DNA of 64,000 bases, from positions 1,102,599 to 1,166,598 of the forward strand of contig OY969571.1 in NCBI GenBank assembly GCA_963701165.1. The letters are read 5' to 3'. Made by a program: the position numbers and the translations under genes. Source of the DNA: an uncultured Actinomycetes bacterium (lineage in GTDB: Bacteria; Actinomycetota; Thermoleophilia; Solirubrobacterales; 70-9). Positions 498-57,231 of this stretch are shown in pieces (the first letter of the stretch is position 1; every line of letters starts with the position of its first letter). Below the pieces are notes generated by a model. The model was given only the letters and a program-made list of their open reading frames with translations. It was not told where the DNA came from and searched no databases.

Positions 498-544
498 CAG
501 GGCGATTATGTCAGTGGCCTGGCCAGGCAGCCGAATCGGCCTGG

Positions 545-1648: not shown

Positions 1649-1658
1649 CGTACTGATT

Positions 1659-1698: not shown

Positions 1699-1705
1699 TT
1701 GATCC

Positions 1706-6247: not shown

Positions 6248-6348
6248 CCCACCGATCTTACGCAGGTCGGTACGTCGCCCAACCGACGATTGATGAGTTG
6301 ACCACGCTATAGGCGGGTTAACTCATCAATCGCGGCTCAAATATGGGG

Positions 6349-7494: not shown

Positions 7495-7497
7495 CGG

Positions 7498-8073: not shown

Positions 8074-8102
8074 GGCGCGCAAGATTAGAGGAATCATCGG
8101 CG

Positions 8103-25436: not shown

Positions 25437-25487
25437 CGTTCCCCCTTTCCTGGGTTTACGCCCTGAGGCAACCGCGCCGAACCCCTT

Positions 25488-26747
25488 ATGTCTTCCGATC
25501 CCCTCACCGCATCCCCAGCCGGGCCGACGCCGGCCCCCAGTCCCGCCACGGGGGCACCGCCGGCGATCCAGGTCGAAGGCCTGCAGAAGTCCTTCCGCAT
25601 TCCCACCCACCGGGTCGACTCGCTCAAAGAGCGCGTCGTCCACCCCTTCGCCGGGCGCGAGTTCCGCGACCTGCGGGCGCTGCGCGGGGTCTCCTTCGAG
25701 ATCAGCCAGGGGGAGTTCTTCGGGATCGTCGGTCGCAACGGGTCCGGCAAGAGCACCCTGCTGAAGCTGCTGGCGAGCATCTACCGGGCCGACGCCGGCA
25801 CGATCCGGATCGCCGGGCGGCTGGCGCCCTTCATCGAGCTCGGGGTCGGCTTCAACATGGACCTCACCGCGCGCGAAAACGTCGTCCTCAACGGGGTGAT
25901 GATGGGGCTCACCCCGCGCGAGATGCGCCGCCGCCTCGACGCGATCATCGAGTTCGCCGAGCTCGAAGACTTCGTCGACCTGAAGCTGAAGAACTACTCC
26001 TCGGGGATGCTGGTGCGGCTCGCCTTCGCGGTGATGATGGAGGCCGACGCCGACGTGCTGCTGATCGACGAGGTGCTGGCGGTCGGCGACGCCGCCTTCC
26101 AGCAGAAGTGCGCCGACGCCTTTCACCAGATGAAAGCCGAGGGCAAGACGATCATCCTCGTCACCCACGAGATGGCGACGGTCGAGGACTACTGCCACCG
26201 GGCGATGCTGATCGCCGACGGCGAGATCCAGCACATCGGCGACCCCGGCGAGGTCGGGCGCGAGTACCTGCGGCTCAACTTCGAGGGCGGCGCGGACGAG
26301 GGCGCGACCGAGGGCGAGGAGGTGCGGCTGGTCGAGGCGCGGCTCGAGGGCGCCGACGGCGAGCCGACCGCCAACGTCGAGCACGGCGAGGAGATCCGGC
26401 TGCGGCTGGAACTCGAGGTCAAGCGCGACCTGCCCGGCCTCGACGTCGGCTTCCTTGTCGCCAACGCCGACGGCCTCGGCGTCTTCAACTTCGGGATCCC
26501 GGTCGGCGAGCGCGAGGAGGCGCGGGAGCTGAGCGCCGGCCAGCGGGTGGTGGTCACCGCCGCCGTCGACAACCAGCTCGTCGCCGGCCGCTACTTCGTC
26601 CACTGCGGCATCAACCGCGCCTACGAGGGCGGCATCGCGCTGTACGTGCCGAATGCGATCGACTTCGTAGTCTTCGGCGGCCCGCAAACTCGCGGCCTCG
26701 TCTACCCGGAGCTGAAGATCGACGCCGCGATCGAGGGCGGCGGATGA
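25488..26747 (+). CDS. wzt: Polysaccharide ABC exporter ATP-binding protein with a C-terminal Wzt_C-like carbohydrate-binding domain
   Basis: Walker A is GRNGSGKSTLLK, the signature is YSSGMLVRLAF, and Walker B is LLIDEVLAVGD. An extra beta-rich segment of about 150 aa (RLVEARLEG...IRLRLELEV...FLVANADG...RYFVHCGI) follows. Confidence 0.88.
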   Translation: MSSDPLTASPAGPTPAPSPATGAPPAIQVEGLQKSFRIPTHRVDSLKERVVHPFAGREFRDLRALRGVSFEISQGEFFGIVGRNGSGKSTLLKLLASIYRADAGTIRIAGRLAPFIELGVGFNMDLTARENVVLNGVMMGLTPREMRRRLDAIIEFAELEDFVDLKLKNYSSGMLVRLAFAVMMEADADVLLIDEVLAVGDAAFQQKCADAFHQMKAEGKTIILVTHEMATVEDYCHRAMLIADGEIQHIGDPGEVGREYLRLNFEGGADEGATEGEEVRLVEARLEGADGEPTANVEHGEEIRLRLELEVKRDLPGLDVGFLVANADGLGVFNFGIPVGEREEARELSAGQRVVVTAAVDNQLVAGRYFVHCGINRAYEGGIALYVPNAIDFVVFGGPQTRGLVYPELKIDAAIEGGG

Positions 26748-27601
26748 GCGCCCAACCGACCACCCCGGCACCGCTGCGCGAGGTGCGCGGCCCCTCCGCC
26801 CTCGGCGGCGGCTCGCGCCGCTTCTTCGACCTGCTCTGGCTGATGTCGGTGACCGAGTTCAAGCGCGTCTACTTCGGCACCGTGTTCGGCTACGTCTGGT
26901 CGCTGGTGCGGCCACTGGCTCTGTTCGGCGTCCTCCTCTTCGTCTTCACCCAGGTCTTCAAAATCGGCAGCGATACCGCCGAGCACTACCCGGTCCTGCT
27001 GCTGATGGGGATCGTGATGTTCACCTTTTTCCAGGAATCGACGACCAACGGGGTCACCTCGGTGGTCGCCCAGGAGGGGATCGTCCGCAAGACCCAGTTC
27101 CCGCGCCTGGTGATCCCGCTGGCGACGGTGGTGACCGGCGCCTTCAACTTCGGGCTGAACCTGATCGTGGTCCTCGGCTTCGTCCTCGCCTTCGGCGTCA
27201 CCCCGGCCTGGACCTGGCTCCTGTTCCCGCTCGTCGTCGCCGTCCTTTTCGTCTTCACCGCGGCGGTGAGCATGCTGCTCTCGGTCCTCTACGTCCGCTT
27301 CCGCGACGTGGCGATCATCTGGATGGTCTTCGCCCAGGCCCTCTTCTACGCAACCCCGATCCTCTATCCGGTCGAAGCGTTCGAAAACGAGACCTACGAA
27401 CACCTGCTGATGCTGAACCCGCTGGCGGTGATCTTCGAGCAGGCCCGCGTCTGGGTCCTCGAACCAAACGCGCCAACCGCGGTCGAGGCGGCCGGCGGAG
27501 CAGCCGGTCTGATCCCGGCGGCGGCGATCTTCGTCGGCGTCTGCGCGCTCGGCGTCTGGACCTTCAGCCGCCAGGCCCCACGAATCGCCGAGGACCTCTA
27601 G
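26744..27601 (+). CDS. wzm: ABC-2 type polysaccharide exporter permease
   Basis: The ATG at 26744 overlaps the wzt stop (ATGA). LLWLMSVTEFKRVYFGTVFGYVWSLVRPL... is followed by six TM helices. This gene is the C-terminal part of the artefactual 1183-aa track ORF. Confidence 0.85.
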   Translation: MSAQPTTPAPLREVRGPSALGGGSRRFFDLLWLMSVTEFKRVYFGTVFGYVWSLVRPLALFGVLLFVFTQVFKIGSDTAEHYPVLLLMGIVMFTFFQESTTNGVTSVVAQEGIVRKTQFPRLVIPLATVVTGAFNFGLNLIVVLGFVLAFGVTPAWTWLLFPLVVAVLFVFTAAVSMLLSVLYVRFRDVAIIWMVFAQALFYATPILYPVEAFENETYEHLLMLNPLAVIFEQARVWVLEPNAPTAVEAAGGAAGLIPAAAIFVGVCALGVWTFSRQAPRIAEDL

Positions 27602-30913: not shown

Positions 30914-32133
30914 GCGGCTGGACCCCCGGCGACGGCCTCAGCCGGCCGCGGCGCGGCGTCCGCTTCCGGGCGACCCCACACCACCCGGAACATCGTCCAT
31001 GAGGCATCGGCCGTGGCGAAGAGCAGAACGAGGTCGCGGACCACGGCCTTGCCGGGAGATATCCCGAGCGCGCCGCTGAGCAGCATCGCGACGAGGACCA
31101 GCCAGGCCGGTCGCTCCAATCGCGTCGATCGCGCACAGAGCACGACGGCGGCCAGCCCCACCATCCAGACCATGAACTGGGGACTGAGGACGCGGCTGGT
31201 CACCAGGAACAGGAGCACGATGGTGAAGACGAAATCGCGGGCCAGCACCTCGTCGGCGAGGTCGGTACGCCCGCTGCGGATCGCCCGGTCGCGCATCCAC
31301 CACCACCAGGCGGCGGCGAGGAGGACGAGGATCGCGGCAACCCCGAGCAGCGCCGAAACGGCGTCAGCGGTCGAACCGGCGATCTCGCTGGTGCCGTAAC
31401 GCTGAGCAACTGGCAGCGGCTCGCCGGTGATGACCTCCCGCAACTGCCACGGAGACGCAGCGACAGCTTCGATCTGCAGGCCGCGGTCGTTCTGGTTCGT
31501 GAAGAAGGCGGTCTGGTCTCCAAAGGCGATCCAGGCGACCACGAAAACCGCCACCATCGTGGCGGCCGCGACGGCGACCGAACGCAGCAGCCGCCGACGG
31601 TCCCACTCCCCGAACAGCACGAACGCCGGCCAGACCTTGACCGTGGCGCCGAGCCCGGCCAAAGCCCCGAACCAGGTCGGCCGGCGATGGATGACGACCA
31701 GCGCGGCGATCGCGATCACCGTCGGCACGATGTCGAAGCGCAGCAGCGGCATCGCCCCCAGCACCGGCATCGCCAGCAACCAGATCCAGACGCCGGTGTC
31801 GCGGCGCTCACGGTCGGCCAGCAGCATCACCAGCAGAAACCCGATCAGGTCGAAGACCAGCATCAGAATCACAAAGGTGAGCTTGAAGTCCAGCGGACCG
31901 AGGCGGGGAATCAGGAACAGGAAGGCCGCCCCCGGCGGGTACTGCCAGGTTTCTTCCTGCGGCATCAGACCGGTCGAGGCGATCCAGTTCGACCAGCCTT
32001 CGTAGGTGTTGACGTCCTGGTATTCGGAGCCGTTGACGTGATCCCAAAGCCCAATCTGCGCCAGCATGTAGCTACGGGAAACCAGCCAGGCGAATATCCA
32101 GGCCGGAATCTTGAGTCTGGGATCCAGTCGCAT
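30910..32133 (-). CDS. GT87/DUF2029-like polyprenol-phosphate-sugar-dependent glycosyltransferase, tandem paralog 1
   Basis: The ATG at 32133 was verified. QDVNTY matches the D-x-x-x-Y loop, and WQYPPGAAFLFLIP and RVLSPQFMVW are present, with about 10 TM helices. Confidence 0.6.
   Translation of the reverse strand: MRLDPRLKIPAWIFAWLVSRSYMLAQIGLWDHVNGSEYQDVNTYEGWSNWIASTGLMPQEETWQYPPGAAFLFLIPRLGPLDFKLTFVILMLVFDLIGFLLVMLLADRERRDTGVWIWLLAMPVLGAMPLLRFDIVPTVIAIAALVVIHRRPTWFGALAGLGATVKVWPAFVLFGEWDRRRLLRSVAVAAATMVAVFVVAWIAFGDQTAFFTNQNDRGLQIEAVAASPWQLREVITGEPLPVAQRYGTSEIAGSTADAVSALLGVAAILVLLAAAWWWWMRDRAIRSGRTDLADEVLARDFVFTIVLLFLVTSRVLSPQFMVWMVGLAAVVLCARSTRLERPAWLVLVAMLLSGALGISPGKAVVRDLVLLFATADASWTMFRVVWGRPEADAAPRPAEAVAGGPAA
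31923..32027. repeat. 105-bp tract identical to 33152..33256 (inside GT87 paralog 1)
   Basis: Compared base by base. The offset is a constant 1229 nt, with mismatches immediately outside both ends. Confidence 0.85.
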
Positions 32134-36470: not shown

Positions 36471-38124
36471 TGCGCCCCGCTTCTCGGTCATAACGCCGGT
36501 CTACGACACGCCGGTTGACGTCTTCTGGGCGATGGTCGGCTCGGTCCTCGCCCAGGGTTTCGGAGACTGGGAGCTGTGCCTGGTCGACGATCGCTCCCCC
36601 TCCCATCACGTGGCGGCGCTGCTGGACGAAGTCGAAGGGCTGGACCCGCGGATCCGGGTCTCCCGCCGGGCCGAAAACGGCGGCATCGTCGCCGCCTCCA
36701 ACGACGCCTTGGCGATGGCGCGGGGCGAATTCCTCGTCCTCCTCGACCACGACGACGAGCTGCACCCCGACGCGCTGCTGCACGTGGAGCGGGCGTTGCG
36801 GGCGGAACCGGAGGCCGACTACGCCTACACCGACGAGGACAAGATCGACCGCGCCGGCCGCCACTCCGGGCCGTTCTTCAAGCCCGACTGGTCGCCGGAG
36901 CGGATGCGGACCCAGATGTACTCCTGCCACCTCAGCGTCTTTCGCCGCTCGCTGGTCGAAGAGGTCGGCGGCTTCGATCCCGAGTTCGAAGGCTCCCAGG
37001 ACTGGGACCTGGTCCTGAAGGCGACCGAGCGGGCGGGCGCCGTCGTCCACGTCCCCCGCGTCCTCTACCACTGGCGGATGCTGGAGGGCTCGACCGCGGG
37101 CTCCGACGAGGCGGCGAAGCCGTGGGCCTTCGACGCGGGCACGCGCGCGGTCCAGGCCCACCTCGACCGGATCGGGATGCCCGCCCGCTGCACCCACGAC
37201 CCCGACGACCGCGGCGTCTACCACCTCGACCCGGAGCTGAGCAGCGAACCGCTGGTCAGCATCGTCATCCCCACCGCCGGCCAGGTGCGGGAAGTCCGCT
37301 ACGAGCCGGTCGTGCTCGTCAGCCACTGCCTGCGCAGCATCGTCGCGACCTCGACCTATGAGAACTACGAGCTGGTGGTCGTCGTCGACACCCCGGCTGA
37401 GGAGGCGCTGCTGGATGAGCTGCGGGAGATCGGCGGCGAGCGGCTGCGGCTGGTCTCCTACGACAAGCCCTTCAGCTACTCGGACAAGGTCAACGTCGGC
37501 GCCGCCGCCGCCCGCGGCGAATACCTGCTGCTGCTGAACGACGACATCGAGGTGGCGACGCCGAACTGGATCGAGCGCATGGTCATGTACTCGGGGATGG
37601 AGGAGATCGGCGCCGTCGGCGGCCGGCTCCTGCTCCAGGACGAGCGCCTGCAGCACGTCGGCGTCCGCTTCGAGGGCGGCCTGCCGGGCCACCACTACTG
37701 GGGCTTCCGCGGCGACTTCCGCGGCTACGCCAACACGGTGCGCACCGCGCAGAACTGCCTCGCCGTCACCGCCGCCTGCCTGATGACCCGGCGCCAGCTG
37801 TTCGAGCAGCTCGGCGGCCTCAGCGACGACTTCCCGGTCAACTACAACGACGTCGACTACTGCCTGCGGCTGCGGCAGCTGGACAAGCGGACCGTTTACG
37901 ACCCCGACTTGAAGATGTTCCACTTCGAGTCTTCGAGCCGCTCTTCGGCCGTCGAGGACTGGGAGAAGCGACTGTTCAGGGAAAGGTGGCTACCGTTAAC
38001 CGCCGTCGACCCCTACTCGAATCCGCAACTGCGCCACGAACTGCCGCGGCTCAGCTCCAAATTCAGCTGGATGCCCCGCCGCCCCCGGCTCCGGCGCCGC
38101 CTCCCGAAAGGACAACCTGCCTGA
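36463..38124 (+). CDS. Two-domain family 2 glycosyltransferase
   Basis: The first GT2 is FSVITPVYDTPVDVFWAMVGSVLAQ...CLVDDRS...LLDHDDEL. The second GT2 is VSIVIPTAGQ...LLLNDDIEV...NYNDVDYCLR. Confidence 0.8.
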   Translation: MADAPRFSVITPVYDTPVDVFWAMVGSVLAQGFGDWELCLVDDRSPSHHVAALLDEVEGLDPRIRVSRRAENGGIVAASNDALAMARGEFLVLLDHDDELHPDALLHVERALRAEPEADYAYTDEDKIDRAGRHSGPFFKPDWSPERMRTQMYSCHLSVFRRSLVEEVGGFDPEFEGSQDWDLVLKATERAGAVVHVPRVLYHWRMLEGSTAGSDEAAKPWAFDAGTRAVQAHLDRIGMPARCTHDPDDRGVYHLDPELSSEPLVSIVIPTAGQVREVRYEPVVLVSHCLRSIVATSTYENYELVVVVDTPAEEALLDELREIGGERLRLVSYDKPFSYSDKVNVGAAAARGEYLLLLNDDIEVATPNWIERMVMYSGMEEIGAVGGRLLLQDERLQHVGVRFEGGLPGHHYWGFRGDFRGYANTVRTAQNCLAVTAACLMTRRQLFEQLGGLSDDFPVNYNDVDYCLRLRQLDKRTVYDPDLKMFHFESSSRSSAVEDWEKRLFRERWLPLTAVDPYSNPQLRHELPRLSSKFSWMPRRPRLRRRLPKGQPA

Positions 38125-38125
38125 C

Positions 38126-38770
38126 GTGAACTACGAGCGCCTGTACAGCTTCCGCTTCCGCGACATCGACCAGGACGGCCGGATCGCTGTCTGGCAGCAG
38201 ATCAGCCCCCACGTCCACGGCCTGATGGGCAGCCCGCAGAAGGTGCTCGACCCGGCCGCCGGCCGCGGCGAGTTCATCGGCGCGATCCCCGCCAAGGAGA
38301 CCTGGGCCGTCGACGCCGTCAGCTACGACGAGGCCGCCCACAAGCCGGACACGAAAGTGATCACCGCGATGATCATGGACGCCGAGCTCCCTGCCGACCA
38401 CTTCGACGGCGTCTTCGTCTCCAACTTCCTCGAGCACCTCTACGACCAGGAGGCGATCGCCGCCTTCCTGGAAAAAATGAACAGCTCGATGGAGGGGGGC
38501 GGGCGGATCGCGATCATGGGGCCCAACTACCGCTACTGCTCCGACGAGTACTGGGACTGCGCCGACCACTACGTCGCCCTCACCCACGTGGCGATCGAAG
38601 AGCACCTCTACGCCGCCGGGTTCGAGATCGAGCGGGTAATCCCCCGCTACCTGCCCTACTCCTTCCGCGGGATCCTGCCGCCCTCGCCGGCGCTGACCCG
38701 TCTCTACCTGAAGACGCCGCTCGCCTGGCGGCTTCTCGGCAAGCAGTTCCTGGTGATCGGGCGCAAGTAG
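38126..38770 (+). CDS. Class I SAM-dependent methyltransferase (candidate glycan methyltransferase)
   Basis: VLDPAAGRGEFIG is motif I, followed by FDGVFVSNFLEHL and GGRIAIMGPN. It begins 1 nt after the GT2 stop. Confidence 0.7.
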   Translation: MNYERLYSFRFRDIDQDGRIAVWQQISPHVHGLMGSPQKVLDPAAGRGEFIGAIPAKETWAVDAVSYDEAAHKPDTKVITAMIMDAELPADHFDGVFVSNFLEHLYDQEAIAAFLEKMNSSMEGGGRIAIMGPNYRYCSDEYWDCADHYVALTHVAIEEHLYAAGFEIERVIPRYLPYSFRGILPPSPALTRLYLKTPLAWRLLGKQFLVIGRK

Positions 38771-47744: not shown

Positions 47745-49262
47745 TTGATGACCTTGAGTCGGCGGGCTGGAATATTCGTGCTTGCCCTGGGATTGCTGAT
47801 CGCGCTTGCGGGCGGCAGTGCCCAGGCGGCAAGCCTGCAGACGGTCGGGACCGGCTTCGACGAACCGATCTTCGTCACCTCCGCCCCGGACAACCCGGAC
47901 CGGCTGTTCGTCGTCGAGCGCAAGGGCAGGGTGATCGAAGTCCTCCCCGGCGCCCGCTCGGTCTTCGCCGACCTGCGGCCGGCGGCCGGCTGCGAAGGCG
48001 ACTGCAGCGGCGAGCGGGGGCTGCTCTCAATCGCGCTCGCACCCGACTTCGCCACCAGCGGCCGCTTCTTCGTCTTTTACGGCGAAGACCAGGGAGAAGG
48101 AGACATCCACGTCGCCGAAATGCAGGCGAACGGCAGCTTCGCCCCGATCGGCACCCTCCGCAACCTGCTGACGATCCCCCACCCCACCAGAAGCAACCAC
48201 TACGGCGGACAACTCCAGTTCGGCCCCGAAGGCAACCTCTTCATCTCCACCGGCGACGGTGGCGGCAGCAACGATCCAGATCACAACGCCCAGGACCTGA
48301 CCAGCCTCCTGGGCAAGATCCTCCGCATCGACCCCGATCCCAGCGGCCTCCTCCAATACACCGTGCCCGCCGGCAACCCGTTCGGCGACGAGATCTGGTC
48401 CTACGGGCTGCGCAACCCCTTCCGCTTCTCCTTCGACCGGGGCGGCAGCGGCCTCTGGATCGGCGACGTCGGTCAGGGGCAACGCGAGGAGGTCGACTGG
48501 GGACCGGCTCCGGGCCTCGGTGGCGGCTTCAACTTCGGCTGGAGCTGCTTCGAGGGCACGGCCCTGGGGGCGGCACCCGACCCGGCGTGCGCCGGGCAAC
48601 CCGCCGAGGCTTTCGTCGCACCGATCTTCGACTACCCGCACATCCCACCCGAAGGCGGCTGCCCCAACGGCTTCGCGATCATCGGCGGCTATGTCTCCCG
48701 CGATCCCGGCATCAGTGGACTCTTCGGCCGCTACCTCTACGGCGACCTCTGCGATGGCAGGATCCGCTCCTTCGCTATCGGTCCAGGCCAGGCATACGCC
48801 AGCGATCGCCCCGAGGGCATGCAGGCCTTCGGGCTCAACTCCTTCGGCGAGGACTCCTGCGGCCGCCTCTACGCGGTCTCCGGCGCCGGCGCGGTCTATC
48901 GGATCGTTGGCGGCGAACCGACGAACTGCACGGGCGCGGCGCCCACGCCCGTACCGGTGCTCAACCCCTCCTTCGTCGGCATCAAGCCCCTCTCGCGCCG
49001 GGTGCTGCGCAACCGCCGCGCCCTGATCACCGCCTGGGTCTCGCCCTGCAAAGGCCGCGTCGGCGATCCGGTCACCCTTTGGCGCGGCCGCCAACGCCTC
49101 GGCACCAGGCACTTCGACCGCGTCTGCACGGCCCGCTTCCGTCCCAAGATCAGCCGCCGCCTCAACTTCCGGGCGACGGTCAAAGCCGACGACACCTACG
49201 TCGCGGCGATCTCCCGCAAGCTGACGCTGAAGCCGAAGAAGCGCCCCCGGCGCCACCGCTGA
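47745..49262 (+). CDS. Secreted PQQ-dependent sugar (glucose/sorbosone) dehydrogenase-like beta-propeller with a basic C-terminal extension
   Basis: Signal peptide ...LIALAGGSAQA. ERGLLSIALAPDF, HYGGQLQFGPEGNLFISTGDGG and GLRNPFRFSFD are present. Confidence 0.75.
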   Translation: MMTLSRRAGIFVLALGLLIALAGGSAQAASLQTVGTGFDEPIFVTSAPDNPDRLFVVERKGRVIEVLPGARSVFADLRPAAGCEGDCSGERGLLSIALAPDFATSGRFFVFYGEDQGEGDIHVAEMQANGSFAPIGTLRNLLTIPHPTRSNHYGGQLQFGPEGNLFISTGDGGGSNDPDHNAQDLTSLLGKILRIDPDPSGLLQYTVPAGNPFGDEIWSYGLRNPFRFSFDRGGSGLWIGDVGQGQREEVDWGPAPGLGGGFNFGWSCFEGTALGAAPDPACAGQPAEAFVAPIFDYPHIPPEGGCPNGFAIIGGYVSRDPGISGLFGRYLYGDLCDGRIRSFAIGPGQAYASDRPEGMQAFGLNSFGEDSCGRLYAVSGAGAVYRIVGGEPTNCTGAAPTPVPVLNPSFVGIKPLSRRVLRNRRALITAWVSPCKGRVGDPVTLWRGRQRLGTRHFDRVCTARFRPKISRRLNFRATVKADDTYVAAISRKLTLKPKKRPRRHR

Positions 49263-49311
49263 GCGGGCGGTGAACCGCAACGCTCCGCGCTCCGTAGGCT
49301 GACAAACGCCT

Positions 49312-51930
49312 TTGACGTCCACCCGGCAAAACGAGATCGCGAATTTCGAGATCGGCCCAGGCGAGCTCGCCTTCGACGCGAGGATCGGCGAGATCGAGAA
49401 GCGGGTCTGGTTCCGCTCCGAGACCGCCGTCACGCCCTACCCCGAGGCCGCCCTCGTCACCTGCCTGCTGCCGGCGATGGGCCGCGGCGGGACGCTGAGG
49501 ATGAGTGAGCCGATCAGCCCCCGGGTCCTGCGCACCCAGCGCGAGTACCAGGCGGTCCAGCGGGCCTGGTCGCTTTCCTGGCCCTTCGGCGACCCACCGC
49601 TGGAGGAGGTCGAGGTGGTCGCCCCGGTTCGCCCGGCAGAGGTCCGGCAGCCGGTGGGGCGGGTCGCTGCCTTCTTCAGCGGCGGCGTCGACTCCTGGTC
49701 GACCGTGCTCGAGAACCCCGACATCACCGACCTGATCTTCATCCGCGGGTTCGACATCCTGCCCCGCCTCGCCCACCAGGAGGGGCTCGCGGACCGGGTC
49801 GAGGCGCGGCTGCGGGCCGCGGCAGACGAGCTCGGGCTCCATCTGCACACGGTGGAGACCAACCTCCGCGAGCTCTCCGAAGCGACCGGGCCCGAGCAGC
49901 CGCTCTCCCGCTGGGAGTCCTACTACGGCTGCGCGGTCACCGCGGTCGCCCACTTCCTCGGCCCGCTCTTCGACCGGGTGCTGATCGCCGGCGACTCCGA
50001 CTACGAGGTGATGGACACGCGCGGGGCGGCCTGGATGGTCGACCAGTTGTGGAGCAACGAGAACTTGGAGATCGTCGACGACGGCGGCCGCTTCAGCCGG
50101 GCCGAGCGGACGGTGCGGATCGCCTCTCACCCGATCGTGCGGAAGAGCCTGCGGGTCTGCTGGGAGAACCCGGACGGCGCCTACAACTGCGGGCGCTGTC
50201 GCAAGTGCCTGATGACGATGGCGACCCTGGAGACCGCGGACGCGCTGGGGCAGGTCGAGACCTTCCCCGACGAGATCGACCTCGACGCGGTGGCCGAGCT
50301 GACGCTGCCGGTGACGGTCCTGCTGACGCTGTGGGAAGACATCCTCGACGCCGCGCGCCGGGCCGGTAAGCCCGAGCTCGAGCGCGCCGTCGCCACGGCG
50401 GTCTCCCGCAGCCGACAGCTGCTCGAGTTGCCGCCGGGATACCGGCGCCGGAACCTGCCGGGGCCAGCGCCGACGGGCGGAGACGAGACCGCCGCCGACG
50501 GCACACTGCTGGCCACGCCGGAGACCGCTGCCCTCCTCACCGCAGGCGCGCCGCTCGCGCTCCTGGTCGGCAGCTACGACGGCTCCGGCAACTACGGCGA
50601 CATCGCCCAGCTCGACGGGGCTCTCGGCCTGCTCGAGCGCCTCGATTCCGACCTCCTCGTCCTGCCCGTGGTCGAGCGGCGGTTCGCGGGAACCCATAAG
50701 ACGATGGCGACGGAGTTGGTCCACCACCCCCGGCACGTCCTCTATTTCTACGGCGGCAGCGGTCCCCGAGACGAGGGACTCGTGCCCGTCGAGCCACCGC
50801 AGGGGGTCCCGCTGGCGATCTCCTACCTCTACGGAGGCGGCTTCCTCAACCCCTCCTGGGGCAGGCGCAAGCTGGCGATGCTGAGCGCCGTCGAGGACTT
50901 CGTCGCCGACGCCGGCAGGGTGGTCCGGCTCGCCTCCGGGCAGCAGGTGGACGCGGGCTGGATTGCCGGCCTCGACCCCGCCGAGGCCGAGCTGCTGCGC
51001 CGGTTCGAGCTCTGGGGCGCACGCGACGACGCCTCCGCCGAGACCCTGGCCGAGTTGGGGGCAAGCGGGCCCGCGTTCAACGGCGGCGACGACTCGGTCG
51101 GCATCCTGACGGCAATCGGAGCCGGATCCGGGCCCGAGCAGTCCGGCTCCCCGCTCGTCGTCAACGTCCACTTCGCCGAGCACGAGTGGGTCACCGACCA
51201 GCCCGACTCGGTCCGAGAGTTCGACGTCCGGCTCCTGGCCGAGCTCGCCCGTCTCGCCGGCCGGCCGCTGCAGGTGCGACCGCTGCTTGCCTACCTCGAC
51301 CCCAGGATCGACGAGCGTCCCGGCCTCGAGCGCTTCGCCGCAGCCTGCGCCGAGCGCGAGATCGAGCTGATGAGCGAGCCGTGCGTCCTGCGCCCCGCCG
51401 GCGTCGGAGACCTGGCCGGCGAGCTGGGCGACGCGGCGCTCACCGTCAGCTCCTCCTACCACGTCGCCCTCACCTCGCTGCTGATGGCGATCCCGACCGC
51501 GCTCCTCCGCGACAACGACTACTACGCGCAGAAGGCGCAGGGCCTGCTCTCCGACTTCGGCCTGCCACCGGATTTCTCACCCCGCTCCTCCGACGACCCC
51601 GAGGCCGCGGCAGCGGCGATCGCCCCCCACCTCCTCGATCCGGAGCAGCGGAGGCGGACGCGGCACCGGCTCGCGGACGCGGCGAGCCGAGTGCAGCGGC
51701 GGCGGGTCGAGACCGAGGCGAGGCTCTTGGCCCTGATCGCCGGGGGCGCGCTGGCCGCGACCGGGACGGCGGCGGGTCCCGCCCCCACCTCCGCCCCGGA
51801 CGACGGGCGAGCGGCGGCGGCCGAGCGGCGAGCCGCCGAGGCGGAGTCGAGCCTCCGAGAGCTCTACGGCTCCCGCTCCTGGGCACTCACCGCACCGTTG
51901 CGACGCCTGGCCAACTACCGTCGCAGCTGA
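49312..51930 (+). CDS. Uncharacterised QueC-like PP-loop ATPase domain fused to a polysaccharide pyruvyl-transferase (CsaB/WcaK-like) domain, with a coiled-coil SRSW..PLRR tail
   Basis: TTG start. AAFFSGGVDSWST lies at aa 119..131 and CWENPDGAYNCGRCRKC at aa 283..299. From about aa 414 the sequence reads LLVGSYDGSGNYGDIAQ, YLYGGGFLN, WGARDDASAETL and VSSSYHVALTSLLMAIPTALL. The tail is GSRSWALTAPLRRL. Confidence 0.65.
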   Translation: MTSTRQNEIANFEIGPGELAFDARIGEIEKRVWFRSETAVTPYPEAALVTCLLPAMGRGGTLRMSEPISPRVLRTQREYQAVQRAWSLSWPFGDPPLEEVEVVAPVRPAEVRQPVGRVAAFFSGGVDSWSTVLENPDITDLIFIRGFDILPRLAHQEGLADRVEARLRAAADELGLHLHTVETNLRELSEATGPEQPLSRWESYYGCAVTAVAHFLGPLFDRVLIAGDSDYEVMDTRGAAWMVDQLWSNENLEIVDDGGRFSRAERTVRIASHPIVRKSLRVCWENPDGAYNCGRCRKCLMTMATLETADALGQVETFPDEIDLDAVAELTLPVTVLLTLWEDILDAARRAGKPELERAVATAVSRSRQLLELPPGYRRRNLPGPAPTGGDETAADGTLLATPETAALLTAGAPLALLVGSYDGSGNYGDIAQLDGALGLLERLDSDLLVLPVVERRFAGTHKTMATELVHHPRHVLYFYGGSGPRDEGLVPVEPPQGVPLAISYLYGGGFLNPSWGRRKLAMLSAVEDFVADAGRVVRLASGQQVDAGWIAGLDPAEAELLRRFELWGARDDASAETLAELGASGPAFNGGDDSVGILTAIGAGSGPEQSGSPLVVNVHFAEHEWVTDQPDSVREFDVRLLAELARLAGRPLQVRPLLAYLDPRIDERPGLERFAAACAEREIELMSEPCVLRPAGVGDLAGELGDAALTVSSSYHVALTSLLMAIPTALLRDNDYYAQKAQGLLSDFGLPPDFSPRSSDDPEAAAAAIAPHLLDPEQRRRTRHRLADAASRVQRRRVETEARLLALIAGGALAATGTAAGPAPTSAPDDGRAAAAERRAAEAESSLRELYGSRSWALTAPLRRLANYRRS

Positions 51931-51931
51931 C

Positions 51932-53188
51932 GTGCCCAGTGACCCACGACACGAGATCGCGAGCATCTCCTCGGGTCCTGGCGAGCTGACCTTCGAGGCG
52001 CGGCTGCAGGGACGGGAGCCGCAGCGGATCTGGCTGCGCTCCGACACCGAGGTGGAGCCCTACCCGGAAGCCGCCCTGGCGGCGATGCTAATGCCGGCGA
52101 TGCGAACCGGCGGGACGCTGGCCATGAGCGAGCCGATCAGCCCGCGGGTCCTGCGCATGCAGCGCGAGTTCCAGGCGATCCAGCGGGCCTGGTCGCGGGA
52201 GTGGGTGTTCGACGACCCCCCGCTGGAGGAAGTTGAGGTGAGCGCCCCGGTCCGCCCGGTGCAGCGGCGCGACCCGACCGGCCGCGTGGCGGTCTTCTTC
52301 AGCGGCGGCGTCGACTCCTGGTCCACGATCCTCGGCGAGCCGGAGGTGACGGACCTGATCTTCGTCCGCGGCCTCGACATCCTGCCCGGTTTCAGTCACC
52401 AGGAGGGGCTCGCGGACCGGGTCGAAGCGCGCCTCCGGGAGGCGGCAGACGACCTCGGCCTGCGCCTGCACTCCGTCGAGACCAACGCCCGCGACCTCTC
52501 AGAGCCGAACGGTCCGGGCTATCCCGAGATCCGCTGGGAGTCCTATTACAACTCGCTGTTGTCGGCGGTCGCGCTCTTCCTCGGGCCGCTCTTCGACCGG
52601 GTGCTGATCTCGACCGGTCTGGCCTACTTCAACCAGTCGCAGATCGGCGCCAGCTGGATGGTCGACCAGCTCTGGGGCAACGAGAACCTCGAAATCGCCG
52701 ACGCGGGAGGGCTGCTCGGCCGGGTTGCGCGGGTCGAACGGATCGCCGCCCACCCGACCGTGCAGAAGAGCCTGCGGGTCTGCTGGCACAACCCCGACGG
52801 CGCCTACAACTGCGGCCGCTGCCGCAAGTGCCTGGTGACGATGGCGAACCTGGAAGCGCTCGGCCGGCTGGCGGAGTTCGAGACCTTCCCCTCCGAGCTC
52901 GGCCCCGAACATCTCGAGCTACTCGCCGCCCAGGAGGTCCAGGAACCGCTCCACCTCGACCTCTGCGAAGAAGCCCTGGAGGCGATGCGGGAGAGCGGCA
53001 AGCCGGAGCTGGAGCGGGCCTTCGAGCAGCTCGTCGCCAGAGGCAGGCGGACGCTGGGGCGCGACGGCGGCCCCGTCGAGGAGGCAGAGCGCCGCGCCGC
53101 CGAGGCGGAGGCGAAGCTCGACGAGGTTCTGGGTTCACGCTCCTGGAAGGTCACGGCGCCGCTGCGGCGTCGGCGCGGCAGCGCATAA
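51932..53188 (+). CDS. Uncharacterised QueC-like PP-loop ATPase, paralog 2
   Basis: The GTG start is 1 nt after the previous stop. AVFFSGGVDSWST, HQEGLADRVEARLR, CWHNPDGAYNCGRCRKC and the tail GSRSWKVTAPLRRR are present. Confidence 0.65.
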   Translation: MPSDPRHEIASISSGPGELTFEARLQGREPQRIWLRSDTEVEPYPEAALAAMLMPAMRTGGTLAMSEPISPRVLRMQREFQAIQRAWSREWVFDDPPLEEVEVSAPVRPVQRRDPTGRVAVFFSGGVDSWSTILGEPEVTDLIFVRGLDILPGFSHQEGLADRVEARLREAADDLGLRLHSVETNARDLSEPNGPGYPEIRWESYYNSLLSAVALFLGPLFDRVLISTGLAYFNQSQIGASWMVDQLWGNENLEIADAGGLLGRVARVERIAAHPTVQKSLRVCWHNPDGAYNCGRCRKCLVTMANLEALGRLAEFETFPSELGPEHLELLAAQEVQEPLHLDLCEEALEAMRESGKPELERAFEQLVARGRRTLGRDGGPVEEAERRAAEAEAKLDEVLGSRSWKVTAPLRRRRGSA

Positions 53189-53189
53189 A

Positions 53190-54476
53190 TTGAGCGACGT
53201 GCCCGAGCCCCCCGCCCAGCGCATCACCGACCTGCGGCGGGAGCCGGGAGAGCTCTCCTTCGAGGCGCAGCTCGGCGGCGGCGAGCCGCGGCGGATCTGG
53301 TTCCACAGCGAGACCGAGGTGACGCCGAGCGCCGACGCGGCGCTGGCGGCCTGTCTGATGCCGGCGATGCGAACCGGCGGCAGGCTGGAGATCGACGAGC
53401 CGGTCAGCCCGCAGCTGCTGAGCAACCAGCGCGAATACCAGGCGATCCAGCGGGTCTGGTCCTTCGCCTGGAAGTACGACGAGGCCCCACTTGAGGAAGT
53501 CGAGGTGATCGCCCCGGTCCGCCCGGTGGAGCGCCGGCAACCGACTGGTCGCGTCGCTGCCTTCTTCAGCGGCGGCGTCGACTCGTTCGCGACGATCCTC
53601 GACAACCCGGAGGTCACCGACCTGATCTTCATCCGCGGCGTCGACATCCTGCCTCGCCTCGCCCACCAGGAGGGGCTCGCGGACCGGGTCGAGGCGCGCC
53701 TACGCGAGGCGGCCGAGGAACTGGACATGCCGCTGCACGTGGTCGAGACCAACGTGCGCGATCTCTCCGATCCCCTGATCCGCTGGGAGTGCTACTTCTC
53801 CAACCCGCTGCTCGCCGTCTCCCACTTCTTCGCCCCGCTCTTCGACCGGGTGCTGATCACCGGCGACACCGACCACGAGACCCAGCCAGCGATTGGCACT
53901 TCGCTCCTGATCGACCACCTCTGGAGCAGCGAGGACCTTGAGGTCATCGACTTCGGCGGCCGCCTTAACCGCGAGCAGCGAATTCAGCTGATCGCCGAGC
54001 ACCCGGTCGTGCGCCGCACCCTGCGCACTTGCTGGGAAAACCCCGACGGCGCCTACAACTGCGGCCGCTGCCGCAAGTGCCTGCTGACGATGATCTCGCT
54101 GGAGGCGATCGGAGCCCGCCAGGGGGTGGAGACCTTCCCGGCTGAGCTCGACGTCGGTCGTCTGGCCGAGCTGGAGCTGAACCAGCGGATCTCCCTCGCC
54201 CTCTGCGAAGACCTGCTCGCCACCGTCCGCGAACGGGGAAGAGCGGACATGGAGCCCGCCGTCGCGGCGTTCGTCGAAAAAGGAAGGCGGTCCCAGGGCC
54301 TGGCGAAGACCTACCGCTCGCGGCCGAGCCGGGACGGCGTCCCCGAGACGCTGTCCGGGGCCGAACAGGAAGCCCTCGAAGCGGAGCTGACAACGGTGCT
54401 GGAGTCCCGCTCTTGGCAACTGACGAAGCCGCTGCGCCGGCTCGGCGACAGGCTGCGGGCGCGGCGCGGCGCCTGA
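53190..54476 (+). CDS. Uncharacterised QueC-like PP-loop ATPase, paralog 3
   Basis: The TTG start is 1 nt after the previous stop. AAFFSGGVDSFAT, HQEGLADRVEARLR, CWENPDGAYNCGRCRKC and the tail ESRSWQLTKPLRRL are present. Confidence 0.65.
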   Translation: MSDVPEPPAQRITDLRREPGELSFEAQLGGGEPRRIWFHSETEVTPSADAALAACLMPAMRTGGRLEIDEPVSPQLLSNQREYQAIQRVWSFAWKYDEAPLEEVEVIAPVRPVERRQPTGRVAAFFSGGVDSFATILDNPEVTDLIFIRGVDILPRLAHQEGLADRVEARLREAAEELDMPLHVVETNVRDLSDPLIRWECYFSNPLLAVSHFFAPLFDRVLITGDTDHETQPAIGTSLLIDHLWSSEDLEVIDFGGRLNREQRIQLIAEHPVVRRTLRTCWENPDGAYNCGRCRKCLLTMISLEAIGARQGVETFPAELDVGRLAELELNQRISLALCEDLLATVRERGRADMEPAVAAFVEKGRRSQGLAKTYRSRPSRDGVPETLSGAEQEALEAELTTVLESRSWQLTKPLRRLGDRLRARRGA

Positions 54477-54483: not shown

Positions 54484-56130
54484 TCAGGCGCCGCAGACGA
54501 GCGCGCCCTGGTCGGCGTCGACGAGCAGTTGCCAGGGCCGCGCGAGGTTGTCGCGAGGGATGTAGAGGCGGGTCGTCGAACCGGCCGCGAGTCCGGTCCG
54601 CAGCGGGTATTCATGCTGCGCGAAACGCCGCAGCCGCAGGGTGCCTTCGCCGCCCGCACCGAACTCGATCGTCGTCACCCCCGGGCGCAGCGCCAGCGGC
54701 GCGGCGGCGGCCCTGACGCACTCGCGCTCTCCCCGCGCCCCGGCGGGCGCTTCTTCGATCCCCAGCGGCAGGGCGTTGGCGAGCACCAGGTCCGCCTGCG
54801 CGCGGCCTTGTTCGGGCGCCGCGGCAAGCTCGGCCGGCGAGTAGGCGGGTGAGCCGTACTCCCCGGCCGCTTCCAGGTACTCCCCGGCTTCGACTTCGCC
54901 CAGGTAGACGGTGCCGGCGACTTCAGGGGAGAGCCGGAACGCCGGTTCGATGGTGCGATCGGCGATCTCGATCGCCGCCAGGCCGGCCCGGGTCAGCACC
55001 GTCTGCTTCTCGAAGAAGTCCCGGCCTTCGCGCAGCGGCACCAGGTTGAAGCCGGCGATGACGGCGGTGAGGGCCGCACCGGCGACGAGCGCCCCGCGCT
55101 TGAACCGCACCCCCTGCAGCAGGTTGACCGCGATCAGCAGGGCGAAGAGGCCGCCGACGTAGAGGTAGCGGCTGGAGTAGGGCTCGCGACCGGGCCCCTC
55201 GTTGAACGCGGCCAGGAACCAGAAGGTCGCCGCGGCGGCGAGCACGGGCCAGAGTCCGGCGAAGAACCCGCGCCGGCGATAGCCGCCGTAGGCAGCCAGG
55301 GCCAGCAGCGCGATCAGCAGCGGCGCGCCCCATTTCGAGCGACCGACGACTTCGTCGGAGATCGTCCCCAGAGCGAGGACCGAGTCCAGCGAAGCGGTCA
55401 GCCCCTCCGAGACGTAGCCGGGCGAGACAAGGACGTTGTGGGCGCTGAGGTTGTTCTGGGCGTCATGCCCCCAGCCGAGGTACCAGCCCGCGTAGAGAAG
55501 CAGCGGCAGGCAAAAGACGTAGGCGCGCCGCAAGCCGCGCTCACGCCGGCGCTGGAGGACGTCTACCGCGGCGGCGACCGCGAAGGCGATCCCGAGGCTG
55601 GAGAAGGCGACCGAGACCACCAGGAAGGCGCAGGCAGCGCGGTCCCAGCGCTCGTCATCGTTCTCGAGCGCCAGCAGCGTCGCGATCCCGAACAGGGACG
55701 CGCCGACGAAGCCAATCTGGAAGGGCCAAAGCAGGTCCTGCCAGGCCGGGCCGAGGAAGAGCAGCAGGACCGCCGCGATCAGCGCCGGCCAGGGACCGAG
55801 GCGGCGCTGGGCGTAGACGAACAAGAGTCCGGCGACAATCAGCTGCAGCACCACCAGGAACACCAGTTCGGGCGTCATCGAGTCCATCCCGAAGAGGCGC
55901 AGGGAGGCCTGCATGATCAGCACCGGGAGCAGGACGATGTGCTCGTTATGGGGGTCGAGCAGGGTGGCGGCGGAGGGGTCCCGCCGCTGCATCAGGAACT
56001 CCCAGGAGTCCTGGAAGAAGGTGAGGTGGGCGCCGTAGCTGAGGATCACCGCCGCGGCGGCGGCCATCGCGACGGCGAGCAGGACGAGGGCGGCGTTCCT
56101 GCTCAGCCGCTCACGGTCTCGCGCGGCCAC
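54484..56130 (-). CDS. Polytopic membrane protein, family A (intact paralog of 27598..29246)
   Basis: 548 aa. FFQDSWEFLMQRRD...PHNEHIVLLPV...GPWPALIAAVLLLFLGPAW...YLGWGH... are present. The C-terminal roughly 170-aa soluble domain ends in VCGA. Confidence 0.6.
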   Translation of the reverse strand: MAARDRERLSRNAALVLLAVAMAAAAAVILSYGAHLTFFQDSWEFLMQRRDPSAATLLDPHNEHIVLLPVLIMQASLRLFGMDSMTPELVFLVVLQLIVAGLLFVYAQRRLGPWPALIAAVLLLFLGPAWQDLLWPFQIGFVGASLFGIATLLALENDDERWDRAACAFLVVSVAFSSLGIAFAVAAAVDVLQRRRERGLRRAYVFCLPLLLYAGWYLGWGHDAQNNLSAHNVLVSPGYVSEGLTASLDSVLALGTISDEVVGRSKWGAPLLIALLALAAYGGYRRRGFFAGLWPVLAAAATFWFLAAFNEGPGREPYSSRYLYVGGLFALLIAVNLLQGVRFKRGALVAGAALTAVIAGFNLVPLREGRDFFEKQTVLTRAGLAAIEIADRTIEPAFRLSPEVAGTVYLGEVEAGEYLEAAGEYGSPAYSPAELAAAPEQGRAQADLVLANALPLGIEEAPAGARGERECVRAAAAPLALRPGVTTIEFGAGGEGTLRLRRFAQHEYPLRTGLAAGSTTRLYIPRDNLARPWQLLVDADQGALVCGA

Positions 56131-57231
56131 CGGTGAGCGCGACGAAGGCGTGCCAGGAGGGCTTGGCCCGGAACTTCGGCCCGGCGCGGAAGAGCCCGAC
56201 CGAGTCGCAGAAGGTGCAGGATTCGGGCAGGTCCTTCCAGGAGAACCAGTAGGCGCTCTTGAGGTTGAGCCGCCGCGCGTTTTCGAGCAGGTACCCGTAG
56301 GAGGCCCGCAGCTGTTTCACCTGACCGCGGATCCCCTGCTCGAAGGCGACCTGCTGGAAGTTGTTCTCCGACCCCCAGCCGAGCTCGGTCAGGTAGAGCG
56401 CCGGGCGGTCGCGGTTTTCCCGCGCCACCTCGGTGAATTCCTCGATCATCCGTTCGAGGTCTTCGCTGTCGACCGCGTAGGGGTGGAGGTCGATCCCGTC
56501 GAAGCGGTTTTTGAAGCCCGGGATCGCGTAGAGACGTTCGAGGTAGGTCGTCGCCGGCAACCCTTTCCGGCCCTTCGCGGTCGGCTCGGCGAAGAGGCCG
56601 GCGAGGACCACTTTCGCCTTCGGGTCGACCGATTTGATCGCCTGGCTGGAGATCGTCACCAGCTTCGAGTAGGTCGAGGTCGAGACCGGGTAGGCGAAGT
56701 AGAAGAAGTTGGGCTCATTCCAGATCTGCCACTCGCGGATCGGGATCGGGTTGGCGATCGCCGGTTCGTAGTTGCGCCGATGCCGCCGGTCTGATCCCAG
56801 AACTCGCCCCCCGGGCCGTAGCGGGCGACGGCGGCGCTGAGGAAGTCGGCCCAGCCTTTGCGCTGCCTGGCGGTCGCCACCGGCATCGTCGTTTCCTTGC
56901 GGGTCGCCCAGCGCGGCGGCGAGCCGATCGCGGGCAGGACACGCAGCCCAGCGCGGGTGGCCAGTTCGAGCGCGGCGTCGAAGCCGCCCCAGTTGTAGGG
57001 GGAGTTCCGCGTTGGCTGAACCCCGGCCCAGGGCAGGGTGAGGCGGATGCTTTCGATCCCGCCGGCTTTCATGTAGCGGAAGTCTTCCGGGCCCAGCGGA
57101 GTCTGCGGGACGATCCCGAAGAACCCCCGCGGCGGCTGCGGGATCGGTTTCGCGGCACCGGTCTGGGTGCCGAGCACCAGGGCGAGGAGAAGGGCGGCGA
57201 GCAGGGGAAGAGCGAGGAGGCGTCTTTTCAT
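56111..57231 (-). CDS. Secreted clan GH-A-like hydrolase, paralog 2; frame broken by one apparently missing base around 56770..56800
   Basis: Track ORF 56656..57231 gives the signal peptide and N-terminal half up to GGEFWDQTGGIG. The other frame continues RNYEPAIANPIPIREWQIWNEPNFFYF...YLTELGWGS (track ORF 56111..56659 plus upstream codons). The whole gene is collinear with paralogs 1 and 3. Confidence 0.6.

Follow-up and report, generated by a model that had tools for sequence, protein, structure and literature searches.

Pyruvyl transferases and QueC-type PP-loop enzymes

Pyruvate ketals rank among the chief sources of negative charge on bacterial glycans and of the epitopes there that proteins bind, with roles in SLH-domain anchoring, O-antigen termini, capsules and exopolysaccharides. 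Pyruvyl transferases (PTs) belong to the GT-B fold class, and we know of no characterised ketal PT, in the literature searched or elsewhere, with a PP-loop protein as its fusion or pairing partner. Here we describe such a fusion, an 872-residue protein encoded in a cell-surface sugar locus of a soil actinobacterium (an uncultured member of the Solirubrobacterales; contig OY969571.1, positions 1,102,599 to 1,166,598). This whole stretch of 64,000 nucleotides is called the window, and its own numbering is used throughout. The protein joins an N-terminal module resembling the PP-loop enzyme QueC (the PP module) to a C-terminal domain of the family PF04230 (PS_pyruv_trans), and two standalone paralogs of the PP module are encoded directly downstream.

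In CsaB, mutagenesis has shown the residues R148, H308 and K328 to be critical to the use of phosphoenolpyruvate (PEP), and a contact by R306 has been proposed from docking (PMC10435577). In an ABC-transporter pathway of Klebsiella, terminal pyruvylation by WbbZ caps and terminates an O antigen (PMC10629545). The zinc-type relatives of QueC characterised so far share one chemistry, the adenylation of a carboxylate that nitrogen then attacks: QueC converts 7-carboxy-7-deazaguanine (CDG) into the amide and then the nitrile with ammonia as the acceptor, and Cap9 and QatC join a carboxylate to the N-terminus of a protein (PMC13329287, PMC13279940). The C-terminal helical extension of QatC binds the QatC substrate (PMC13279940). 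A survey published in 2026 defines QueC by the motifs SGGxDS and C(x)8CxxCxxC and also lists the CDG-pocket motifs YxQxHxxE, VPxRN and YPDC; QueC-like WbpG, in turn, acts on the N-acetyl groups of sugars (PMC13329287).

Domain architecture of the fusion

The fusion gene lies on the plus strand at 49312..51930 and encodes, in order, the QueC-like PP-loop module, a linker, the PT domain and a helical tail. Its G+C content at third codon positions (0.93, in a window of about 70% G+C) is the codon-position signature of a real gene; a 760-residue antisense open reading frame (ORF) that overlaps it (49180..51462) was discarded as a high-GC artefact. The AlphaFold2 (AF2) model of the whole protein has a mean predicted local distance difference test score (pLDDT) of 88.2 and is confident inside each domain. 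A homology search returned 296 homologues, mainly from Solirubrobacterales and many of the same architecture, and the fusion proteins are labelled in public databases only as 'polysaccharide pyruvyl transferase family protein' or 'hypothetical'.

A preliminary description of this DNA, made from its letters alone, had assigned the C-terminal half to the CsaB/WcaK type of pyruvyl transferase. The hidden Markov model (HMM) of PF04230 bears this out, matching residues 427-732 at 36.2 bits (E 8.1e-9; Pfam gathering cut-off 25.3 bits) and covering profile positions 1-276 of 280. The change of domain had been placed at about residue 414. A switch does exist, but the AF2 model sets a linker at residues 376-397 (50437..50502, plus strand) and starts the GT-B domain near residue 398. 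This linker is rich in Pro, Gly and Arg, lacks secondary structure in the model (pLDDT about 69-80) and is variable in alignment A3, which comprises 65 homologues of the same architecture as the fusion. The PT domain itself occupies 50503..51636 on the plus strand, with the PF04230 envelope at nucleotides 50590-51507, and is supported by Foldseek matches to GT-B enzymes (E about 1e-7) and by motif alignment. When the whole model was searched against the PDB, Foldseek gave 160 matches at E<=1e-3, and the top 50 listed are all GT-B enzymes, among them OGT, UDP-GlcNAc 2-epimerases and VldE. Pvg1p was not singled out by this search, in which fold matches do not separate PTs from glycosyltransferases or epimerases; because Foldseek is unable to discriminate within the GT-B class, the identity of the domain rests on Pfam and on its motifs. 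PDB sequence searches with the PT-domain profile and with E. coli WcaK found nothing useful.

The motifs GxxNxGD, GGG, RDxxS, H and K are kept in the PT domain, and the four peptide strings picked out in the preliminary description are all located in the fusion: GSYDGSGNYGDIAQ at residues 420-433, YGGGFLN at 507-513, RDDASAE at 571-577 and SSSYHVALTSLLMAIPTALLRDNDYYAQK at 713-741. The active site was examined in an alignment of the domain to E. coli WcaK and to PF04230-type genes adjoining PP genes in other phyla. R571 (within ARDDAS; 51022..51024, plus strand) corresponds to CsaB R148, which binds PEP and is essential in CsaB (PMC10435577); it is invariant in A3 and aligns with WcaK and the other PTs. 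K741 (51532..51534, plus strand) corresponds to the PEP-binding K328 of CsaB (PMC10435577); Q740 and K741 are invariant in A3, and the lysine is present in every PT aligned. The third site departs from the known enzymes, in that S715-Y716-H717 (51454..51462, plus strand) stands in place of R-x-H: H717 matches CsaB H308, S715 replaces CsaB R306 and Pvg1p R337, and both S715 and H717 are invariant in A3. The same S-Y-H occurs in the PP-associated PTs of loci L035 (Chloroflexales), L039 and L071 (both Ktedonobacterales), and T-Y-H in that of L066 (Armatimonadota), while R-x-H is retained by WcaK and by the PTs of L027, L038, L050, L056 and L069. Donor binding may therefore differ where the arginine is replaced by S715. 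On profile and motif evidence, the domain is a genuine member of PF04230 and probably uses PEP, with one unexplained difference in the active site.

One homologue with a PT domain only (P0086, 503 residues) carries the first 27 or so residues of the PP module (MDSGDHHEIANFESGPGELSFDARISE) joined straight to the linker and the PT domain. The QueC-like module seems to have been lost by a natural in-frame deletion, which makes this homologue in effect a natural 'unfused' control.

The catalytic core of the N-terminal half (residues 115-310; 49654..50241, plus strand) is supported by Foldseek, hhalign and a PDB profile match, and carries two motifs. The pyrophosphate-binding motif SGGVDS (residues 123-128; 49678..49695, plus strand) is invariant in alignments A2 and A3, and its G125, D127 and S128 are also invariant in A7, a multi-phylum alignment of 80 sequences in which the relatives are only 30-40% identical. 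The AF2 model has a parallel alpha/beta core in which this motif links the first strand (118-121) to the first helix (126-134). The second motif, CWENPDGAYNCGRCRKC (residues 283-299; 50158..50208, plus strand), has the form C(x)9CxxCxxC and is presumed to be a QueC-type zinc site; C283, C293, C296 and C299 are invariant in A7. Across 388 instances of the PP domain, SGGxDS is kept in 378 and the four-cysteine motif in 383, with the x9 spacing in nearly all. The core is preceded by an extension (residues 1-114; 49312..49653, plus strand) predicted as a three-stranded sheet followed by helix, strand, helix and strand with pLDDT mostly above 90, and is followed by a helical extension (residues 311-375; 50242..50436, plus strand) with AF2 helices at 324-328, 335-351 and 354-370. 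The model of residues 1-393 reaches a pLDDT of 89.9 and a predicted template-modelling score (pTM) of 0.89.

The top Foldseek matches of this half are all PP-loop enzymes (NcsA 6scy, TtuA-like 5ztb, MnmA 2deu, LarE 8cp3 and 3k32), with modest scores (E 3e-3 to 0.2, TM about 0.3) and probabilities of 0.85-0.99 for the top four. With the diverse profile A7, the best PDB sequence match is QatC (9vlk, E 0.004), aligned at the PP-loop and at the CGRCxxC segment. PDB searches with the whole protein and with a narrow 42-sequence profile of the N-domain found nothing useful. Alignment by hhalign with the single sequence of E. coli QueC brings beta1-SGGxDS-alpha1-beta2 into register over only 31 columns around the PP-loop; since the PP-loop segment alone is aligned, this was judged too weak to claim QueC membership. 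At E<=1 the N-half has no Pfam or NCBIfam match apart from a weak C-terminal stretch of QueC. Weak Pfam QueC matches of this kind occur in 14 of 42 family members (E 0.04-10), are confined to profile positions 161-203, which is the cysteine motif, and reach at best 12.6 bits in the family against a threshold of 22. The PP-loop label given to this half in the preliminary description is thus backed by motif and predicted fold, not by any curated HMM, and some homologues bear the JGI name 'predicted PP-loop superfamily ATPase'. Judged by its motifs and predicted structure, the N-half is a very divergent QueC-type PP-loop enzyme, of neither the QueC, the QatC nor the WbpG type.

Two further resemblances were noted. 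DUF6395 (PF19932) gives weak Pfam matches in 3 of 42 family members (E about 0.07) and in 2 of 83 (1.3e-4), and may on this sequence likeness be a sister group of the QueC-like PP family. The N-terminal extension, which has no family match in Pfam or NCBIfam, follows the order beta-beta-beta-alpha-beta-alpha-beta. Foldseek relates it to E. coli RNase HI in a series of low-scoring matches (probability 0.3-0.6 over about 125-130 columns), probably a topological resemblance only.

Association of the PP family with pyruvyl transferases

The PP family is large. When 1.84 billion representatives were searched exhaustively with a profile, 7,411 clusters (counted at 50% identity) matched at E<=1e-3, and 2,139 clusters at the stricter E<=1e-30; most members are standalone proteins of 360-430 residues, and none of the annotation sources covered gives the family a functional name. 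A genome scan yielded 77 PP loci, 29 from close relatives and 48 distant. They come from Solirubrobacterales, other Thermoleophilia, Acidimicrobiia, Chloroflexota, Cyanobacteria, Alpha-, Gamma- and Epsilonproteobacteria, Desulfobacterota, Planctomycetota, Lentisphaerota, Kiritimatiellota, Acidobacteriota, Armatimonadota, Nitrospirota, Omnitrophota, Bacteroidota and others.

Among close homologues, the two domains are fused in the orders PP-PT, PT-PP, PP-PT-PP and PP-PP-PT, and PP-PT fusions are found down to 33-38% full-length identity. A PT lies within 3 kb in 23 of the 29 close-relative loci and is fused in 14 of those 23. The distant loci, which span more than ten phyla, contain a PT-like gene within 10 kb in 17 of 48 cases, or 18 of 48 when the Pfam finding in L076 is included, and none of these is fused. 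These counts per locus are lower bounds, as the narrow PT HMM under-counted and Pfam found more, L076 being an example. Where a PT is present in the distant loci (n = 17), it lies no more than 3 kb from the PP gene in 15 and less than 400 bp away in 13. As an internal control, the density of PTs in the same loci is 0.57 per 10 kb at 0-3 kb versus 0.046 at 3-10 kb, a difference of about 12-fold (15 versus 2; binomial p = 2.8e-5).

For the distant loci, the three genes that flank the PP genes on each side were pooled and scanned with Pfam. PF04230 accounts for 17 of 211 neighbouring ORFs; in the first batch it ties with glycosyltransferase family 2 (GT2) as the commonest family, both contributing 11 of 121 ORFs, while the second batch has it among the top three families, at 6 of 90. 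Genes for AsnB-like glutamine amidotransferases stand beside PP and PT genes in L038, L041 and L076, in the last case as a split gene. What looks like a separately encoded glutaminase partner in L076 is most likely one part of that split gene, its N-terminal half, and is mentioned as context only. The preliminary description had proposed a survey of whether unfused homologues of the PP family occur together with PTs: they do, in many phyla and usually as the adjacent gene. The link between PP and PT is thus real and reaches across phyla, and it is not universal.

Tandem paralogs and a shared C-terminal tail

The three genes of the operon are packed with gaps of a single nucleotide. Paralog 2, a standalone QueC-like PP protein of 418 residues (51932..53188, plus strand), starts 1 nt past the fusion stop and is 60% identical to the N-half of the fusion; its SGGVDS motif lies at 52301-52318, its cysteine motif at 52781-52831 and its tail at 53135-53167. 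Paralog 3 (428 residues; 53190..54476, plus strand) is of the same kind, starts 1 nt past the stop of paralog 2 and is 55% identical to the N-half, with SGGVDS at 53568-53585, the cysteine motif at 54030-54080, the tail at 54405-54437 and a weak QueC match at residues 259-301. The earlier designation of the fusion as the first PP-loop paralog is therefore apt, two paralogs at 55-60% identity to its N-half following it. Identity between orthologs is 80-90% for paralog 2 and 70-78% for the fusion, compared with 55-60% between paralogs. Because they form separately conserved lineages, the three paralogs of the window are not redundant.

All three end in predicted helices and an SRSWxLTxPLRR tail. 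In the fusion, the long C-terminal helices span residues 777-871 (51640..51924, plus strand), with AF2 helices at 777-816, 832-852 and 857-871 and low confidence beyond residue 816, and the tail SRSWALTAPLRRL lies at nucleotides 51871-51909 on the same strand. The consensus S-R-S-W-x-[LV]-T-x-P-L-R-R is present in 197 of 238 close homologues and in 35 of 143 distant representatives, and a window-wide look found it on no protein other than the three paralogs. The tail could serve as an amphipathic segment that anchors the proteins to a membrane, or as a docking peptide common to them.

Tandem PP paralogs are a trait of the family, with 2-5 copies in 14 of the 48 distant loci. Arrays of 3-5 copies adjoin a single PF04230 gene in L071 (Ktedonobacterales; 411-11131), L038 (Okeania; 1767-10959) and L076 (Nitrospirae; 103-6680), L071 having five PP copies with a PT and L038 four. 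In some PP-PP tandem proteins (P0275, P0282, P0293 and P0360), the second copy, at about residues 337-760, has neither SGGxDS nor the four-cysteine motif. The loss of both motifs from these few second copies hints at hetero-oligomers, and their sequences suggest catalytically dead partner subunits, reminiscent of pairs of the Ctu1/Ctu2 type.

Proposed function and alternative explanations

The fusions, the adjacency across phyla and the retained motifs make it likely that the PT and an ATP-dependent QueC-like ligase form a functionally coupled module acting on one glycan. What the ligase acts on is a more tentative matter. We propose, as the preliminary description did, with somewhat less than even confidence and by analogy with the characterised relatives, that its substrate is the carboxylate of the pyruvate ketal, which would undergo ATP-dependent amidation; among the specific readings this one has the best support. 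Such a proposal fits the chemistry of the QueC family because a pyruvate ketal supplies a carboxylate of the sort that zinc-type QueC relatives adenylate, and the specifically QueC-like character of the N-domain (SGGxDS plus four cysteines) strengthens this chemical logic.

In the proposed sequence of events, the PT domain would transfer pyruvate from PEP, as a ketal, to a sugar of an envelope glycan carried on a lipid, possibly at the non-reducing terminus of a polymer that a Wzm/Wzt-type transporter exports. One or more QueC-like modules would then use ATP to adenylate the free ketal carboxylate with release of pyrophosphate, and a nitrogen nucleophile, either ammonia or an amine (an amino acid, for instance), would displace AMP. 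This would leave an uncharged carboxamide, which a further QueC-like reaction round could turn into a nitrile. The three conserved paralog lineages might form a hetero-oligomer or serve different nucleophiles or sites. On motif and model evidence, the fusion may itself be a bifunctional cytoplasmic enzyme of glycan tailoring that works with the two downstream paralogs, an assignment we hold as tentatively as that of the substrate. The extension to the whole family, in which a widespread and unannotated clade of QueC-like ligases (about 7,400 clusters in more than ten phyla) would act with PTs to turn ketals into carboxamides, nitriles or amino-acid amides, is a little more speculative again.

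Several observations weigh against this interpretation. In about 30 of the 48 distant loci (roughly 60%) the 10 kb around the PP genes hold no PT, and some of those loci have nothing to do with glycans, their neighbours encoding a cupin, a GMC oxidoreductase, a PAS kinase or an FBPase. The PP domain is also fused to GT2 domains (P0078, P0147, P0214, P0232, P0233 and P0239), PP-PP-GT2 proteins included. The proposal does not account for the presence of three or more paralogs, and a scan of the window genes with Pfam finds no glutaminase encoded beside the operon. At the PT active site, a serine (S715) occupies the position of CsaB R306 and Pvg1p R337 and is invariant in the fused clade. The PP-loop evidence for the N-domain lies under every curated threshold, with no Pfam, NCBIfam or PADLOC match, a Foldseek E of 3e-3 and a QatC E of 0.004. 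Finally, the interdomain geometry is not confident in the AF2 model of the whole fusion (pTM 0.57). Because of the PP-GT2 fusions and the large share of distant loci without a PT, the ketal carboxylate remains one reading among several.

The strongest of the others keeps the same glycan and changes the target. The module might act, by amidation or some other activation, on the carboxylate of a uronic acid, which is the reaction of the AsnB-like WbpS, or on an acetamido group, to be converted into an acetamidino group as by WbpG, and its pairing with PTs would then reflect the co-assembly of a pathway only. The PP-GT2 and PP-PP-GT2 fusions, the many distant loci without a PT and rare fusions of the PP domain to TylF methyltransferase, epimerase and GNAT/FemAB domains are all consistent with such a role, as is the precedent of WbpG for this fold acting on sugar N-acetyl groups (PMC13329287). 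Yet the PT is specifically the adjacent gene in 13-14 of the 17-18 distant loci that contain one, despite the many glycosyltransferases there, and PF04230 equals in neighbour frequency the far commoner GT2 family. A uronic-acid-forming dehydrogenase was not noted among the top neighbour families. The PP module has no match to the NCBIfam model TIGR03573 at E<=1, and its motifs follow the canonical order of QueC rather than the reversed order of WbpG (PMC13329287). On balance, we regard a target other than the ketal as unlikely, while still deserving serious attention.

Alternatively, the donor might be modified first: the PP module would amidate the carboxylate of PEP or of a pyruvate derivative, or make an adenylated acid, and the GT-B domain would transfer the altered donor and so would not be a PEP-dependent ketal PT of the classical kind. 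The S-Y-H triplet (T-Y-H in L066) removes a positive charge that has been proposed to contact PEP (PMC10435577), and the variable order of the fused domains leaves the order of the reactions unconstrained. Against this stand the intact R571, H717 and K741 and the R-x-H kept by the PP-associated PTs of L027, L038, L050, L056 and L069. We know of no precedent for the amidation of PEP, and modification of the donor appears improbable.

Macromolecular ligation in the manner of QatC and Cap9 would join a carboxylate, possibly that of the pyruvate ketal, to the amine of a protein or peptide. QatC is the best PDB sequence match and has a domain layout in common with the PP module (PMC13279940), and the multiple paralogs, with some degenerate second copies, suggest hetero-complexes. 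The match to QatC is marginal, however, and confined to two generic motifs. No PADLOC model, those of QatC and Cap9 included, matches the three paralogs or seven distant members at E<=10, and a defence-system reading was dropped for this reason. Genes like QatA, QatB and QatD or of CBASS are absent among the neighbours in the window and the distant loci, which are mainly genes of glycan biosynthesis rather than of defence. Ligation of this kind is accordingly rated as highly improbable, and so is its expected product, a covalent glycan-peptide or nucleobase-protein link instead of a simple amide.

Sulfur insertion, in which the PP modules would adenylate a carboxylate or carbonyl and replace oxygen by sulfur to give a thiocarboxylate or thio-sugar, as LarE, TtuA, NcsA and MnmA do in their own pathways, is suggested by the four best Foldseek matches, all PP-loop sulfurtransferases. 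These low scores reflect the common core fold, sulfur-carrier and cysteine desulfurase genes are not among the top neighbour families, and the reading was rejected because of the cysteine pattern, which is the four-cysteine zinc type of QueC and not the three-cysteine [4Fe-4S] pattern of LarE and TtuA (PMC13329287); we give it very little credence. Least probable of all, the PP modules might be non-catalytic scaffolds or regulators of the PT or of a glycosyltransferase, as the few second copies without both motifs and the helical tail common to the three paralogs, which could mediate assembly, might suggest, but the conservation of SGGxDS and of the four cysteines in about 97-99% of instances across phyla, all three window copies among them, speaks against such a role.

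Genomic setting of the operon

A Pfam scan of the window genes places the three-gene operon within a large envelope-glycan region. Its transferases comprise two GT87 proteins, one PMT_2 protein of the GT-C class and several GT2 proteins, among them one with a double GT2 domain; the region also holds a methyltransferase and two NAD-dependent epimerases/dehydratases. Further genes encode a small GT2 protein resembling polyprenol-phosphate-sugar synthases, a weakly matching phosphopantetheinyl-transferase-like protein and a secreted glucose/sorbosone dehydrogenase.

The region also encodes, on the plus strand at 25467..26747, about 23 kb upstream of the fusion, a Wzt-type ABC transporter ATPase with a C-terminal carbohydrate-binding domain (Pfam ABC_tran and Wzt_C). 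Polymers exported with the help of Wzt proteins that bear such a domain have a terminal cap, and the gene thus implies export that depends on capping of the polymer. By analogy with known capped polymers, the pyruvate, modified or not, is a candidate for this cap, the methyltransferase at 38000-38770 being another candidate, and the modified ketal may be the terminal signal read by the carbohydrate-binding domain of Wzt. PEP and ATP, the substrates of the two predicted chemistries, are cytoplasmic, which fits assembly before ABC export.

Several other genes near the operon or in the same region lack a clear assignment. A 548-residue polytopic membrane protein without Pfam or NCBIfam match is encoded on the minus strand at 54484-56130 and converges on the 3' end of the operon, and two further unmatched membrane-like proteins of about 555-565 residues lie at 27598-30937. 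These proteins are candidates for further enzymes of this glycan pathway, either GT-C-type transferases or polymerases that have yet to be characterised. Next to the first of them, also on the minus strand, two ORFs that overlap by 4 nt (56656..57231 and 56111..56659) have together about the length of one glycoside hydrolase. The former has a signal-peptide-like N-terminus and a GH42-like match over profile positions 14-83 of 376, and the latter has no Pfam match; the pair, at 56111-57231, may be a split or frameshifted hydrolase gene, or an assembly error.

Novelty and significance

Both superfamilies are already known, as is the tailoring of sugars by a QueC-like enzyme (WbpG). What is new is a very large QueC-like family outside PF06508, its pairing with PTs across phyla and the chemistry that the pairing implies, none of which is described in the full-text literature searched. 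These searches also agree with the earlier statement that the chemistry had not been described, as they returned neither amidated pyruvate ketals nor a pairing of a PP-loop protein with a pyruvyl transferase. Lying outside PF06508, the family is not covered by the 2026 survey of QueC functional divergence.

If the proposal holds, amidation of the ketal would alter charge, acid stability, recognition by antibodies and phages, and binding of the SLH type, and would represent a glycan modification of a new class, by which surface charge is switched or given a new function. Ketal amides would escape routine structural work because the shift from acid to amide amounts to only about 1 Da. The fusion supplies a concrete and testable substrate hypothesis for the PP family, and assigning its chemistry would extend the repurposing of the QueC scaffold from nucleobase synthesis through protein deazaguanylation to glycan tailoring.

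Comparison with known systems

With QueC (PF06508), the PP family has in common SGGxDS at beta1-alpha1 and a C-terminal CxxCxxC four-cysteine motif of the zinc type, in the same order and about 160-175 residues apart, and by analogy it is expected to adenylate a carboxylate for nitrogen attack. The differences are considerable: the first cysteine gap is x9 instead of x8, the motifs YxQxHxxE, VPxRN and YPDC are absent from the family consensus, and the module of the fusion has about 110 extra N-terminal and 65 extra C-terminal residues. The genomic context also differs, being one of glycan genes, with no queD or queE nearby; neither these two genes nor folE occur among the Pfam-scanned window genes or the top 25 neighbour families of the distant loci.

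QatC, matched by A7 at both motifs, is of similar size (about 420-465 residues) and displays the same layout of an N-terminal beta/alpha extension, a QueC core, a four-cysteine site and a C-terminal helical extension (PMC13279940). Its cysteine motif, C(x)19CGxCxx.., is unlike that of the PP family (PMC13329287). WbpG and WbuX (QueC-like cluster 5, TIGR03573) are QueC-like PP-loop enzymes that tailor O-antigen sugars and provide a precedent for glycan modification, whereas their cysteine pattern is CxxC(x)6CxC and their motifs come in reverse order (PMC13329287); HisH/HisF-like partners were not seen at the fusion locus.

The AsnB-like amidotransferases (WbpS), NadE and Dph6 share with the predicted activity the ATP-dependent adenylation of a carboxylate followed by amide formation. 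They belong to other PP-loop families, and the fusion has neither an Asn_synthase or NAD_synthase match nor a fused glutaminase. Finally, the C-terminal half shares the family PF04230, the GT-B fold and the motifs of CsaB, WcaK, Pvg1p and WbbZ, from which it is distinguished by S-Y-H in place of R-x-H, by the QueC-like module and by the long helical extension with its SRSWxLTxPLRRL tail. The closest functional parallel is with WbbZ, whose capping of a polymer by terminal pyruvylation in an ABC-transporter pathway fits the fusion locus (PMC10629545).

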